From the NCBI GenBank assembly GCA_020631815.1, contig JACKGW010000004.1, positions 112,184-176,183 of the forward strand: DNA of 64,000 bases. The letters are read 5' to 3'. A program made the translations under genes and the position numbers. Below are positions 34,811 through 43,784 of this stretch, one piece after another. The stretch's first letter is position 1. Each line of letters opens with the position of its first letter. The notes beneath the pieces are model-generated. The model was not told the DNA's origin. It was given only the letters and a program-made list of their open reading frames with translations, and ran no database searches. Source of the stretch: Planctomycetota bacterium (GTDB lineage Bacteria > Planctomycetota > PLA2 > JAEUHO01).

Positions 34811-36283
34811 CTAGCGGATCTTCTCGAGCATGTCGGGGGCGTCGGGGACGAGCTCGCGGGGGTAGCGGCGCAGGATCGTCTGCAGCTTGCGGATGGCGTC
34901 CTGGCGCTGGCCGCTGTCGATGAGGTCGCGGGCCGAGCGCATGTCGGTGTCGACCTCGGTACGCGCCTTGTTGAGGATGTCGCCCTTCCACGTGCGGATC
35001 GTCGACTCGAGGTCGGTCCACGCCTCGCGCGTCATGCGTAGGCGGGCGATGCCCTCCAGGTCGGTCAGGCGCTCGATGGCCTTGTGGTAGAAGCGCGTCC
35101 CCACGAGCGACTCGACCGCCGGCCGCACTTCCTCCTTGGCCCGGTACGCCGAGTACTCGGGATCCGGATGCTCGCGCAGCAGCTGGCGGTAGTGCTGCAT
35201 GGTCTCGTCCTCGCCGGCGACGAGGTTCTTGACGGCCAGCGTGCCCGCGTAGCGATCCATCCACTCGTGGATGCGCTGGACGGTCTGGGTGTCGGTCATG
35301 GCGTCGACCGGATGCAGCGTGGGGCTCCAGCTCTTGCGGAGGATCTGCTTGTCCCAGAACTCGCGGGACTCGTCCTCGAGGCGCTGCGTCTGCAGGCTCT
35401 GCATGTGCTGGCGCCACGAGTCCATCTCGTCGTGCAGCAGGTCGTAGTGCTTGCCGCCCGGGTCGCCCTGCTGCTCGGCCAAGCGCAACGCGCGCTCGTA
35501 GCGATCGGGCGCCTGGCTGCCGCGCACGATGTCGATGCCCTCATGCAGGATGTCGCGGTTGCTCGAGGCCGTGCCGCCGAAGATCAGGAAGATCAACGCG
35601 CCGAACACGATGGCGCCGCCGATCACGCCCATGACGATCCAGGAGTTGTTGTTCTTGCGGGCGACGCGACGACCGGGGCGCTCGTCGTCGTAGTAGTCGT
35701 CGTCGTAGTCGTCCTCGCGGGCGCGACGACGCGAGGGCGCGGTGCGCGCGGGTGCGCTGCGCACCGGAGCTGCGGGCGCGGCGGCGACGGCAGGCGCGGC
35801 CACGGCAGGCTTCGGCGTCACGACGGGCTTTGCGGGCGCGGCCGGCTGCGCCGGTGCGGCCGGCACGGGCTTCACGGCCACGGCCGCCGGCTTGGCAGGC
35901 ACGGCCTTCGGCGTGACGACCGGCTTGGCCGCCACGGCCGGCTTGGCACCGACGGACTTGGGCTTGGCCACCTTGGCCACCGGCGGCCCCTGCTCGGCGC
36001 CATCGGCGGCGTAGGTGAGCGTGGCTTCCCCGATGCGGATCGCGTCGCCGTCCATCAGCCAGCGCTGGTTCAGCACGCGCCCGTTGACCGCGGTGCCGTT
36101 CAAGCTCTCGAGGTCGACCAGCTTCATCCGGCCGCGCACGCGCCGCACGACGGCGTGGTGCTTGCTGACGCCGTTGGCCGTGAGCTGCACGGCGTTGGCC
36201 GCGCCACGTCCGATGGTGACCTCGGGGTCGAGGATGTCGTACTCGACGGGCTCGCCCGCCTCCTGGATCGTCAATCGGGGCAT
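34811..36283 (-). CDS. FHA-domain membrane protein (N-terminal FHA, KP-rich linker, acidic tract, one TM, C-terminal extracytoplasmic domain)
   Basis: The start is set at MPRLTIQEAG. The FHA motifs are ITIGRG, VSKHHAVV and LNGTAVNGRV. It has a Lys/Pro/Ala/Val repeat linker (AKPAVAAKPVVTPKAVPAKP ...), a DDYDDDYYDDE tract and a TM helice (WIVMGVIGGAIVFGALIFLIF). Confidence 0.7.
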   Translation of the reverse strand: MPRLTIQEAGEPVEYDILDPEVTIGRGAANAVQLTANGVSKHHAVVRRVRGRMKLVDLESLNGTAVNGRVLNQRWLMDGDAIRIGEATLTYAADGAEQGPPVAKVAKPKSVGAKPAVAAKPVVTPKAVPAKPAAVAVKPVPAAPAQPAAPAKPVVTPKPAVAAPAVAAAPAAPVRSAPARTAPSRRRAREDDYDDDYYDDERPGRRVARKNNNSWIVMGVIGGAIVFGALIFLIFGGTASSNRDILHEGIDIVRGSQAPDRYERALRLAEQQGDPGGKHYDLLHDEMDSWRQHMQSLQTQRLEDESREFWDKQILRKSWSPTLHPVDAMTDTQTVQRIHEWMDRYAGTLAVKNLVAGEDETMQHYRQLLREHPDPEYSAYRAKEEVRPAVESLVGTRFYHKAIERLTDLEGIARLRMTREAWTDLESTIRTWKGDILNKARTEVDTDMRSARDLIDSGQRQDAIRKLQTILRRYPRELVPDAPDMLEKIR

Positions 36284-36351
36284 CGTCGTCTCCGGGCTCG
36301 GCACTCTACGGCAACCGGGGCGCGACACCCCGGGTGGGCGAGATGGACGGG

Positions 36352-41571: not shown

Positions 41572-43784
41572 CAGCGAATCCGTTCCAGCCGGGCATGGCG
41601 CAGCAAGAGCTGCCGTCGTCCATGGCCGACGAAGTCCACCGTGACGCGGGTGTCTTCCCCCCGCCCCCCCACGTCGAAGAGCACGCCTTCGCCGAAGTAG
41701 GGATGTTGCACGCGGTCGCCCACCGTCCAGGCGGAGCCGACCTCGCGCACGACCTCGCCCTCGACACCGGACACGGGCGGAGGCGCGACGGGCGTGGAGA
41801 ACGCCGGGCGCGGCCCCGGTGACCACGCACCCCCCCAGGAGGGGGCGCGGTCGTGCACCTCGATGTCCGCCGGCGGCAAGTCGCCGAGGAAGGGACTGGG
41901 CAAGCGACGCTCGAAGCCGCGGTAGGTCGCGCGCGACGAGGAGAACGTCAGCACGAGCTCGTCCTCGGCACGCGTCATGGCCACGTAGAACAAGCGGCGC
42001 TCTTCCTCGATGCCGCCGGGCTCGTCGACGCTGCGCACGTGCGGGAACCAACCGTCTTCTGCACCCGCCACCACGACGCACGGGAACTCGAGGCCCTTGG
42101 CCGCATGCGCGCTCATGAGCTGCACGCGCCCGCCGTCTTCCTCCACGTCGTCCTGCTCGCTGACCAGGGCCGCGCGCTCGAGGAACGTCGAAAGCTCCAC
42201 GTCGGGCTCGCGTTCGTCGAGCTGGCGGGCGAACGCCACGAGCTCGTCCACGTTCTCTACGCGACTGCGCTCGAGCTCATCGTGGCTGGTCTCCAGCATG
42301 GCCTTGTAGCCGCTGCCTTCGGCCAGCAGCGCGAGGATGGCCGCGACGGGACGGCGCGGCTGGGCGCGCGCGCGATCGAGGAGCTGGGAGAGCTCGCGCA
42401 GGCCCTTCAGCGCCTTGCCCGACACCCCGGCGGTCGCGGCCTCGCGCGCTGCTTCCGCAATGGGCACGCCCTGGTCGAAGGCCCGCTGGCGGATCTTGGC
42501 CAGGCTCGTGTCGCCGACGCCGCGACGTGGCACGTTGGCGATGCGCAGGAACGAGACGTCGTCGGCCGGGTTCTCGACGAGGCGGGCGTAGGCCAGGAGG
42601 TCCTTGACCTCGCGCCGCTGGAAGAACTCCGTGCCTGCGACGACGCGGTAGGGCAACGAGCGCTCGCGAAGCGCCAGCTCGATGGCGCGGGAGGCCGCGT
42701 TGACGCGGTAGATGACGGCGATGTCGTCGGGCCGACGGCCCGCTTCCACCCAGCGCCGGATGCGGGCGGCCACGAGACGACCCTCTTCGTCGGCGTCGCC
42801 CGCACGGTGGACCTCGACCGGCGTCCCCTCGTCCTTCGAGGTGACGAGGCGCTTGGCGTGGCGCTCGGTGTTCTTCGCGATGACCGCTTCCGCGCACGAC
42901 AGGATGCGGCCCGTCGAGCGGTAGTTGCGCTCCAGCACGACGGTGTTGCCGCCGCCCAGGTCTTCCTCGAACGCGAGAATGTTGCCGATCGTGGCGCCAC
43001 GCCAGCGGTAGATGCTCTGGTCCGGGTCGCCGACCACGGTGAGGCTGCCGCCCGGCGGCACGAGCTGCAACAGCAGGTCGCGCTGCACGCGGTTGGTGTC
43101 TTGGTACTCGTCCACGAGAACGTGGCGGAAGCGGTCGCGCAGCACATCGCCGACGCCCGCGCCTTCCACGAGCACGCGCACCGACTCGAGCAGCAAGTCG
43201 TCGAAGTCGAGCAGGCTGGCGGCACGCAGGCGCTCGGCGTAGCGCGTGGCGATCGCCTCGAACACGTCCTCCATGCCGGAGCGGTCCAAGGCCAACGGAG
43301 CACGCCCCGAGCTTCCGTTCTTGAGCCAGCTGAGCTGCGCAGCGACGGCCGGAACGCGCAGGCGCCCTTCGCCCGGCGCCAGCTCGTCGAGGATCAGCTT
43401 GAGCAGGCGGTGCTGGTCGTCGCGATCGAGGATGGTGAAGCGGGTGTCGATGCCGATCGTGTCGCCGTGGCGACGCAGCAACCAGGCCCCGAAGCCGTGG
43501 AACGTCCCCGCGTAGACCGACTCGCCGCCGGGTAGGGCCCCCAAGCGCTCCTTGAGTACCCGGGCGGCCTTGTTGGTGAACGTGATGGCCAGCACCGACC
43601 AGGGGGCGGCCCCCTGGTGGACCAGCCAAGCGACCCGGCGGGTCAGGACCCGGGTCTTCCCCGTGCCGGCACCCGCCACGACCCGGAGCGGCCCCGGGGG
43701 GGCCGTGACCGCCGCCCGCTGGGCTTCGTTGAGGTCCGCCACCAGCCCGGACGGGTTCCCGGGGGTGTAAGCCGCGCTCGCCAT
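41571..43784 (-). CDS. uvrD: ATP-dependent DNA helicase UvrD/PcrA (superfamily 1) with a C-terminal Tudor-like tail
   Basis: SF1 helicase motifs are present (AGAGTGKTRVLTRR, FTNKAA, VLVDEYQDTN, MSAHAAKGLEFPCV). Its stop overlaps the start of the downstream sigma-54 activator (TGATG). Confidence 0.85.
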   Translation of the reverse strand: MASAAYTPGNPSGLVADLNEAQRAAVTAPPGPLRVVAGAGTGKTRVLTRRVAWLVHQGAAPWSVLAITFTNKAARVLKERLGALPGGESVYAGTFHGFGAWLLRRHGDTIGIDTRFTILDRDDQHRLLKLILDELAPGEGRLRVPAVAAQLSWLKNGSSGRAPLALDRSGMEDVFEAIATRYAERLRAASLLDFDDLLLESVRVLVEGAGVGDVLRDRFRHVLVDEYQDTNRVQRDLLLQLVPPGGSLTVVGDPDQSIYRWRGATIGNILAFEEDLGGGNTVVLERNYRSTGRILSCAEAVIAKNTERHAKRLVTSKDEGTPVEVHRAGDADEEGRLVAARIRRWVEAGRRPDDIAVIYRVNAASRAIELALRERSLPYRVVAGTEFFQRREVKDLLAYARLVENPADDVSFLRIANVPRRGVGDTSLAKIRQRAFDQGVPIAEAAREAATAGVSGKALKGLRELSQLLDRARAQPRRPVAAILALLAEGSGYKAMLETSHDELERSRVENVDELVAFARQLDEREPDVELSTFLERAALVSEQDDVEEDGGRVQLMSAHAAKGLEFPCVVVAGAEDGWFPHVRSVDEPGGIEEERRLFYVAMTRAEDELVLTFSSSRATYRGFERRLPSPFLGDLPPADIEVHDRAPSWGGAWSPGPRPAFSTPVAPPPVSGVEGEVVREVGSAWTVGDRVQHPYFGEGVLFDVGGRGEDTRVTVDFVGHGRRQLLLRHARLERIR

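Follow-up and report, generated by a model that had tools for sequence, protein, structure and literature searches.

A conserved trio of FHA-domain genes coupled to uvrD in Planctomycetota: a candidate transmembrane phosphothreonine signalling module with a sigma-54 output

We have analysed a 64-kb stretch of DNA from the Planctomycetota contig JACKGW010000004.1 (here called the window; G+C ~71%), in which a uvrD-type helicase gene is followed on the same strand by a gene for a sigma-54 activator with an N-terminal FHA domain and by two genes for membrane proteins, P2 and P1, each of which also carries an FHA domain. The reading that we favour, with a confidence slightly better than even, is that the locus encodes a transmembrane phosphothreonine/FHA signalling module within a helicase operon, with the activator boosting the expression of its own receptor genes; the mechanism is one that we infer from sequence. 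The evidence is as follows. The activator, P2 and P1 genes keep a fixed order across several diverged Planctomycetota lineages with different flanks, and start/stop overlaps or very short intergenic gaps between the genes are conserved. Each of the FHA domains, in activator, P2 and P1, has intact phosphothreonine-binding motifs (GR, SxxH and NGT). Finally, a sigma-54-type -24/-12 element is kept in front of P2 in the window and five of the related loci.

Three FHA-domain proteins encoded downstream of a helicase gene

Transcription of the minus strand runs through uppS, cdsA, phoH, ybeY, a Hanks-type kinase gene and a gene for a secreted hypothetical protein and then, past the oppositely oriented rpmB, through uvrD, the activator gene, P2 and P1 (Table 1). 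Beyond P1 lie a convergent arginase gene (33689..34606) and then lptF/lptG. The gene map was drawn by third-position G+C gene calling and is concordant with public gene calls. The original prediction for this DNA had described a one-strand cluster of three FHA-domain proteins, including an FHA-GAF sigma-54 activator, in which the activator came after the two membrane proteins. The gene content stands, with Pfam profile searches supporting every named domain, the FHA, GAF, AAA+ and HTH (helix-turn-helix) assignments included, but the order does not, since transcription runs from uvrD through the activator to P2 and P1. A consensus scan found no intrinsic terminators in the intergenic gaps of the gene string, a sigma-70 consensus scan of 34500-44300 found no promoter, and an Rfam scan of the intergenic regions found no RNA family. 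As to the source organism, the activator protein is 100% identical to one on a contig of the metagenome-assembled genome (MAG) GCA_020427815.1 and on several metagenome contigs. NCBI labels an 84%-identical relative of P2 as 'Planctomycetota bacterium' and one relative of the activator from another clade as 'Planctomycetaceae bacterium'.

The uvrD product has the domains of a UvrD/PcrA superfamily 1 (SF1) helicase (UvrD-helicase 1.2e-68, UvrD_C 1.3e-71, PcrA_UvrD_tudor 2.7e-07). The Tudor domain of PcrA/UvrD binds RNA polymerase. The uvrD stop codon TGA (41573-41571) and the activator start codon ATG (41571-41569) have one nucleotide in common in the junction TGATG, in full agreement with the coupling of activator start to uvrD stop that had been proposed, and the two genes are predicted to be co-transcribed and translationally coupled. 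A TACAAT -10-like hexamer lies 9 nt ahead of the uvrD ATG with no obvious ribosome-binding site (43785-43830, minus strand), which suggests that the leader is very short or absent.

The activator is laid out as FHA, helical linker, GAF, coiled-coil, AAA+ and HTH_8, with Pfam matches to FHA, GAF, GAF_2, Sigma54_activat (PF00158), AAA_lid_14 and HTH_8 (E-values in Table 1). All of its AAA+ motifs are intact: Walker A GESGTGK (411), the GSFTGA loop (458) and Walker B LLLDE (479). The GAFTGA loop contacts sigma-54 and its central F and T are essential (PMC3162934); GSFTGA keeps both residues, and the orthologues have either GAFTGA or GSFTGA. The protein therefore has the AAA+ domain with Walker A and B motifs, the GAFTGA-type loop and the C-terminal HTH of an enhancer-binding protein and, as in the Myxococcus type, the position of the receiver is taken by an N-terminal FHA domain that keeps its phosphothreonine-binding residues. 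The solved sequences closest to this FHA domain are those of GarA, FhaA (Rv0020c) and OdhI. In the orthologue alignment the coiled-coil between GAF and AAA+ is the best-conserved stretch of the activator outside the AAA+ core, as is expected of a signalling helix such as that described for PexR (PMC12754779). No hydrophobic membrane segment is present in the activator, nor in the kinase. Sigma-54 regulons have been reported for Planctomycetota generally (PMC12316311). Note that frameshifts in the activator and P2 genes of the long-read metagenome contigs L015, L017 and L020 (related loci are referred to by such L numbers) split the activator into an FHA-only open reading frame (ORF) and an HTH ORF, or garble the AAA+ region, so that precomputed domain lists (e.g. 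P0020) are misleading for these contigs.

P2 and P1 have a single hydrophobic segment each. P2 (Pfam FHA 1.2e-13) consists of a cytoplasmic FHA domain (aa 24-87), a disordered linker, one transmembrane (TM) segment (about 145-167), a mostly helical extracytoplasmic part of ~650 aa and a CAP/SCP/YkwD-like end (aa 807-945), the last matching CAP (PF00188) at 1.7e-08 with 35.7 bits against a cut-off of 21.1. P1 (Pfam FHA 9.5e-15) has a cytoplasmic FHA domain (aa 22-85), a Pro/Ala-rich linker, an acidic Tyr-rich patch, one TM segment (216-238) and a helical TPR-like extracytoplasmic domain of ~250 aa. Alignments show both to be true families with conserved extracytoplasmic motifs. AlphaFold2 modelled P2 with a predicted local distance difference test score (pLDDT) of 84.1 from a 24-sequence alignment; a 4-sequence alignment gave 53.6 and an unusable model. 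From the N to the C terminus the model comprises an FHA beta-sandwich, a disordered linker (96-154), a long helix starting within the membrane segment, helical bundles that include a small beta unit (residues 500-535), and an alpha-beta-alpha CAP domain. The modelled FHA domain superposes on the FHA domains of FhaA and GarA with target-normalised TM scores of 0.69-0.87. As expected of a member of the CAP superfamily, the CAP domain matches the SCP protein 4ifa both by profile (5e-17) and by fold (Foldseek). It carries invariant HHRN and ENI motifs, and in the window's clade it contains an insertion of ~35 aa.

An exhaustive HMMER search of 1.84 billion cluster representatives with P2 minus its FHA domain gave 5192 matches at E<=1e-3, of which 567 reached E<=1e-10 and 58 reached E<=1e-30, and all ten family members sampled (E 1e-168 to 1e-25) have the FHA...CAP architecture. 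Many of the distant P2-like genes have no activator nearby. This search refuted the notion, based on word-index searches that returned 4 and 3 full-length relatives, that the P2 family is tiny. Judged by sequence, FHA-TM-helical-CAP proteins make up a large uncharacterised family of hundreds of clusters at 50% identity.

Table 1. Features of the uvrD-activator-P2-P1 locus and its upstream neighbours (window coordinates)
Feature	Position	Strand	Basis or remarks
P1, 490 aa	34811..36283	-	Pfam, TM prediction, orthologue alignment
P2, 983 aa	36352..39303	-	Pfam, TM prediction, AlphaFold2, Foldseek
Candidate sigma-54 promoter of P2, entered as CGGCACGCCGCTTGCC	39326..39341	-	-24 GG, -12 GC
Conserved block TTGACG-N20-GGCGGAAT, ~70 nt upstream of the -24 element	39405..39438	-	Candidate enhancer (upstream activating sequence, UAS) or other regulatory site
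Sigma-54 enhancer-binding protein (activator), 700 aa	39469..41571	-	Pfam, orthologue alignment
Activator Fis-type HTH_8 DNA-binding domain, aa 655-692	39496..39609	-	Pfam 5e-12
Activator sigma-54 interaction AAA+ domain, aa 384-550	39922..40422	-	PF00158 1.7e-70
Activator GAF domain, aa 172-320	40612..41058	-	Pfam GAF 9.3e-11, GAF_2 6.9e-09
Activator FHA domain, aa 29-92	41296..41487	-	Pfam 2e-19; GR30-31, S45xxH48, N68GT
uvrD/pcrA-type SF1 helicase, 737 aa, C-terminal Tudor domain; heads the gene string	41571..43784	-	Pfam
rpmB (ribosomal protein L28), divergent from uvrD; upstream operon edge	43974..44225	+	Gene map
Secreted hypothetical protein	44388..46100	-	Between kinase and rpmB
Soluble Hanks-type Ser/Thr kinase, 376 aa, downstream of phoH-ybeY	46146..47276	-	Pfam, catalytic motifs

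Conservation of the gene string and its natural variants

Within the window's clade the trio is present in L007/L008 (P2 84% identical to that of the window), L010 (61%), L019, L020 and L100 (36%); in L017 P2 follows the activator, and a downstream P1 was not detected. A second clade (L021, L117, L123 and L163) has activator-P2-P1 with gaps of ~4-25 nt. In a third (L022, L101 and L113) a CarboxypepD_reg-repeat protein is encoded between the activator and P2, after which P1 follows. This in-operon CarboxypepD_reg/Big-repeat protein is ~830-910 aa long (L022 12028-14607, L101 6112-8856, L113 6259-8745) and 39% identical between L022 and L101; L101 has a gene for a further CAP protein, of 816 aa, ahead of the activator. 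The window has a CarboxypepD_reg protein as well (16730-19258), which was considered as an orthologue of the L022/L101 in-operon protein and rejected by comparison. In L010, PMT-family and GT2 glycosyltransferase genes are inserted between P2 and P1 (3684-6037), the GT2 gene overlapping the start of P1, an arrangement suggestive of a connection with envelope glycosylation.

When metagenomes were scanned with the P2 profile and the loci then compared by tblastn, uvrD (41-57% identical) was found directly upstream in loci from all clades, and the uvrD-activator junctions in the relatives are mostly ATGA, GTGA or TTGA overlaps. The two genes are 66 nt apart in L117, and L022 and L101 have the trio without uvrD amid wholly different flanks. 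The latter two loci had led to an interim view that the uvrD link is restricted to the window's clade, which the metagenome scan overturned. The unusual helicase link of the original prediction is real, and is conserved much deeper than a single sequence could have revealed: across the loci compared, UvrD/PcrA helicase and sigma-54-type AAA+ activator appear to form the deepest conserved neighbourhood link of all.

This link extends to a sister lineage with AAA+-only sigma-54 activators of 305-309 aa that are coupled to uvrD (L164 6985-7911, L159 8152-9069, L149 5816-6745; by tblastn only, also L150, L165, L167, L168, L180 and L181). These proteins have an intact GAFTGA or GSFTGA loop and lack FHA, GAF and HTH domains. 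The next CAP protein in these loci is a signal-peptide or lipoprotein form without FHA, and L159 retains a P1-like FHA membrane protein. The AAA+ domains of this lineage are 54-59% identical to that of the window, compared with 44-49% for those of unrelated Acidobacteriota FHA-GAF activators, which fits orthology of the AAA+-only activators. L116, and apparently L115 and L120, have P2-P1 immediately after uvrD, with no activator gene in between; L016 retains uvrD plus activator and has no P2 or P1 downstream.

The Hanks-type kinase that had been noted at 46146-47276 is correctly placed. It matches Pkinase at 6.6e-54 and is catalytically intact as judged by its motifs, all of which are present (GEGAMGAV, AIK, HRDVKPAN, DFG and SPE). 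At least 13 loci (the window, L016, L017, L018, L100, L109, L116, L117, L123, L163, L164, L167 and L168) have this kinase or an orthologue of it (38-61% identity) 2-4 kb upstream of uvrD, and in L022 a 279-aa Hanks kinase is encoded by the next gene after P1 on the same strand. We regard the window's kinase as a candidate writer of phosphothreonine marks. The 570-aa product of the adjoining gene at 44388-46100 has a hydrophobic N-terminus and no Pfam match, and hypothetical proteins are encoded at the equivalent position in L001, L002 and L017.

Using the FHA-GAF part of the activator as query, with domain scans on the retrieved loci, we found FHA-GAF to be a reusable N-terminal module that is fused to several output domains. 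It is joined to sigma-54 AAA+ cores in this lineage and in Acidobacteriota (e.g. L045); to SpoIIE/PP2C phosphatases in Pirellulales (L023, L029, L034 and L046, about 9700-11800), among them the cultured Rhodopirellula sallentina, Roseimaritima sediminicola and Bremerella; to adenylate cyclases with a Hanks kinase gene following them in Bradymonadales/Myxococcota MAGs (L025 and L038, 9956-11640); and to histidine kinases.

Regulatory DNA ahead of P2

The activator and P2 genes are separated by 165 nt. Within this gap lies CGGCACGCCGCTTGC (39341..39327, minus strand), a sigma-54-type promoter candidate with GG at -24 and GC at -12 that is one mismatch away from TGGCAC-N5-TTGC. The site ends 23 nt before the P2 ATG, which would place the transcription start near 39315, just ahead of a GGAGGAG ribosome-binding site. 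Scored with an ad hoc weight matrix, it is among the three best of the window's 127,970 positions. The window holds 3 one-mismatch matches to the sigma-54 consensus where 3.78 are expected, and because of this the rank of the match alone is not significant and the weight rests on its conservation. Six loci (the window, L007, L010, L014, L019 and L020) have the -24/-12 element with its GG-to-GC spacing unchanged, at 23-35 nt from the P2 ATG, in surrounding intergenic DNA that is otherwise unalignable and with proteins that are 36-60% identical; in L019 and L020 TTGA replaces TTGC at -12. Of the three positions for which sigma-54 promoters had been suggested, a site was thus found upstream of 39303 (P2) and not upstream of 36283 (P1) or 41571 (activator). 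No sigma-54 sites were detected ahead of P1, the activator, uvrD or the kinase (best scores 10.0-10.75); in the 68-nt P2-P1 gap the best score was 10.5.

Further upstream in the same gap, GGCGGAAT is the sole 8-mer common to all activator-P2 intergenic regions of the window's clade (8/8), its chance of occurring in a shuffled region being 0.001-0.008 per region. TTGACG precedes it by exactly 20 nt in four loci (the window, L007, L010 and L014). The position of GGCGGAAT fits that of a candidate enhancer site for the activator. We also considered it as an extracytoplasmic function (ECF) or sigma-70 promoter element and rejected this, as there is no conserved partner hexamer at a suitable spacing. 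A second copy of GGCGGAAT, at 15215, is inside a coding region with no sigma-54 site following and was treated as a chance occurrence.

Two further sites of sigma-54 type are located in the divergent intergenic region 24080-24492. The top score of the window, 13.5, belongs to TGGCATCGCGCTTGCA (24355-24370, plus strand), 123 nt upstream of a gene for a 900-aa SBP_bac_5 solute-binding protein, and TGGTCCGGGCCTTGCT (24209-24194, minus strand) precedes a TonB-dependent receptor gene by 115 nt. Both may be other sigma-54 targets or chance matches.

Elsewhere in the window, uncharacterised regulatory parts include a MoxR-type AAA+ ATPase gene (10531-11556), a gene (11682-12455) for a STAS-domain protein of 257 aa that has a long C-terminal extension and a gene for a HEAT+VWA protein (19812-21503). 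The sole Rfam match in the 64 kb is one tRNA gene (1702-1772, minus strand). Two very large ORFs at 55236-61418 (minus strand), one of 921 aa with a weak patatin match and one of 1136 aa without a Pfam match, occupy the stretch of lowest G+C (0.657-0.67 at 56-60 kb), and this DNA may have been acquired.

A candidate envelope-to-transcription pathway and its alternatives

In the signalling module that we favour, P2 and P1 would serve as envelope sensors and the activator as the response element. A Hanks kinase, with the conserved neighbour (46146-47276) as prime candidate, would phosphorylate threonine on one or more of the partners, and the three FHA domains would read the marks so written. 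Occupancy of the activator FHA domain, possibly together with a GAF ligand, would release the AAA+ domain to form an active ring, which would bind upstream of the P2 promoter, with the GGCGGAAT block as the candidate site, and open the sigma-54 promoter. In the window's clade this would raise P2-P1 expression above the basal read-through from uvrD and create a feedback loop on the receptor genes. Coupling to uvrD would most simply provide the activator with constitutive, low, fixed-ratio expression. The earlier proposal of a Ser/Thr-phosphorylation-driven module feeding a sigma-54 regulon is in line with the conservation of trio and kinase and with the P2 promoter candidate; its regulon part fares less well, given a promoter candidate that lies at the module's own receptor genes, is limited to one clade and stands in a window with no enrichment for such sites.

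Several observations weigh against the signalling module. The only promoter candidate precedes the receptor genes of the module itself and not a wider regulon, and one-mismatch sigma-54 matches are not enriched in the window. The site was not found in L017 or L100, which belong to the same clade, or in clades with abutting or overlapping genes, so self-regulation is not a general property of the trio. The candidate is quasi-palindromic (score 12.5 on the plus and 13.0 on the minus strand), and some other regulator could use it as an operator. The kinase is missing from L007/L008 and L015, L007 being the 84%-identical relative, and elsewhere it sits inside a long housekeeping synteny block (uppS-cdsA-phoH-ybeY-kinase...rpmB-uvrD...arginase...lptFG), so that its linkage to the module could be historical. 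Orthologue alignments of P1, P2 and the activator revealed no conserved Thr acceptor site. Finally, the sister lineage, with its activators devoid of FHA, GAF and HTH and its CAP protein devoid of FHA, indicates that the association is not strictly dependent on FHA-phosphothreonine contacts.

The main rival explanation, which we consider rather unlikely, is that a neighbourhood is conserved with no shared pathway behind it: a slowly rearranging housekeeping block would hold an activator whose partners and targets are unlinked, together with P1 and P2 as independent envelope proteins whose FHA domains, a common feature in Planctomycetota, would be coincidental. The long-range synteny of unrelated housekeeping genes around the cluster is as this explanation would have it, as are the activator of L016 with no P2/P1 downstream, the uvrD-P2-P1 strings of L116, L115 and L120 with no activator, the many P2-like genes with no activator nearby and the lack of sigma-54 site enrichment in the window, and the natural variants without FHA domains or without the activator strengthen it. 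It is weakened by L022 and L101, in which the trio persists amid unrelated flanks with uvrD absent, by the conserved gene overlaps and very short gaps, and by a P2 promoter element and an 8-mer that are conserved over deep divergence. It is quite unlikely, in our estimate, that the GGCACG-N4-TTGC sequence ahead of P2 is instead a palindromic operator (GGCA-N7-TGCC) for some other regulator, with P2-P1 expressed by uvrD read-through only and the targets of the activator elsewhere. The nearly equal scores of the site on its two strands, the TTGA at -12 in L019 and L020, the lack of a terminator upstream and the absence of the site from L017 and L100 would all suit an operator. However, the element has GG and TTG(C/A) at the exact sigma-54 spacing in six loci, and without exception it lies on the coding strand right after a sigma-54 activator gene, with 23-35 nt between it and the ATG.

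The persistent uvrD coupling invites a helicase-centred explanation that we judge improbable, namely that the AAA+ activator works with UvrD/PcrA, both of them motors acting on RNA polymerase, and converts DNA damage or transcription stress into envelope remodelling, with FHA domains acting as they do in eukaryotic damage signalling. The stop/start overlap of uvrD and activator across clades with 41-57% UvrD identity, including the AAA+-only loci L164, L159 and L149, speaks for this, as does the Tudor domain of UvrD; the trio without uvrD in L022 and L101, the 66-nt gap in L117, the location of uvrD beside rpmB in the manner of an ordinary housekeeping gene and the absence of other repair genes from the cluster speak against it. 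We likewise see a slim chance that helicase and activator are physical or functional partners, for instance with the Tudor domain recruiting the activator to the polymerase, or with transcription or DNA stress gating sigma-54 activation; if such a partnership is true, the FHA, kinase and CAP membrane proteins would tie it to the state of the cell envelope. It is very improbable that P1 and P2 are structural FHA parts of an envelope-spanning machine, in the manner of YscD/EscD of type III or Fha/TagH of type VI secretion systems. All three FHA domains do give weak matches to Yop-YscD_cpl, but those of P1 (28.2 bits) and P2 (29.9 bits) are under the Pfam cut-off of 33.2 and are accounted for by the FHA fold alone, and no secretion-system genes, which both of these system types would entail, were found in the window or in any related locus.

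FHA-domain sigma-54 enhancer-binding proteins are reportedly an established class in Myxococcus xanthus (a description ascribed to Jelsbak, Givskov and Kaiser, 2005), and the upstream partners of FHA-bearing sigma-54 activators are, to our knowledge, largely undefined. The likeness to the Myxococcus proteins is one of domain layout: they too have an N-terminal FHA domain in place of the receiver, followed by a sigma-54 AAA+ core and HTH, and a Hanks-kinase input is presumed for them. The protein described here differs in having GAF and a conserved coiled-coil between FHA and AAA+, in its translational coupling to uvrD, in the two membrane FHA proteins encoded downstream and in belonging to a Planctomycetota lineage. 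The GAF-regulated activators NorR, NifA, FhlA and PexR have the same succession of GAF, signalling helix, AAA+ and HTH, and GAF represses AAA+ until the signal arrives in PexR (PMC12754779) and in NorR (PMC2941729). These proteins differ in having no FHA domain, and PexR, a GAF-only activator, was rejected as a close analogue.

The closest solved sequences and folds to the present FHA domains come from the mycobacterial and corynebacterial circuits FhaA/FhaB-PknA/B, GarA/OdhI-PknG/B, EmbR-PknH and Rv1747, in which FHA domains with the same motifs read Hanks-kinase phosphothreonine, and among whose members are an FHA protein anchored in the membrane and a transcription factor, EmbR, that bears an FHA domain. 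They differ in output, which is SARP in EmbR and sigma-54 AAA+ here, and in membrane topology and extracytoplasmic domains; the present cluster has no PASTA kinase or PP2C phosphatase. In Bdellovibrio DgcB (FHA-GGDEF), as in the FHA-GAF-SpoIIE and FHA-GAF-cyclase proteins, the N-terminal FHA domain controls an output that is enzymatic or regulatory, and the DgcB FHA domain binds a phosphorylated peptide (PDB 6hc0/6hc1). The SpoIIE and cyclase proteins have the FHA-GAF input module in common with the activator; the output here is transcriptional, with dedicated membrane FHA partners. In the type VI secretion pathway PpkA-PppA-Fha1 with VasH/Sfa2, a sigma-54 activator likewise co-occurs with an FHA protein and a Hanks kinase, but there the FHA protein is distinct from the activator, which itself lacks FHA, and the clusters contain structural secretion genes. 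The C terminus of P2 resembles extracellular CAP/SCP/YkwD-like proteins (e.g. PDB 4ifa) by profile and fold, with the difference that the CAP domain here ends a bitopic protein of ~980 aa with a cytoplasmic FHA domain and, in the window's clade, contains the ~35-aa insertion. A search of the literature available to us found nothing on FHA-GAF-AAA+-HTH proteins with two membrane FHA partners, on the FHA-TM-CAP family or on uvrD coupling.

FHA-bearing activators are already known; the trio with membrane FHA partners looks like an undescribed variant of Ser/Thr-kinase-to-transcription signalling. What it offers is a compact and conserved candidate pathway with named parts: a soluble Hanks kinase, two membrane FHA receptors, an FHA-GAF activator, a candidate enhancer and a sigma-54 promoter. 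Such a pathway could be rebuilt in a heterologous host, and the natural series of domain gain and loss, from full activator through AAA+-only activator to no activator at all, provides a way to probe the contribution of each domain.

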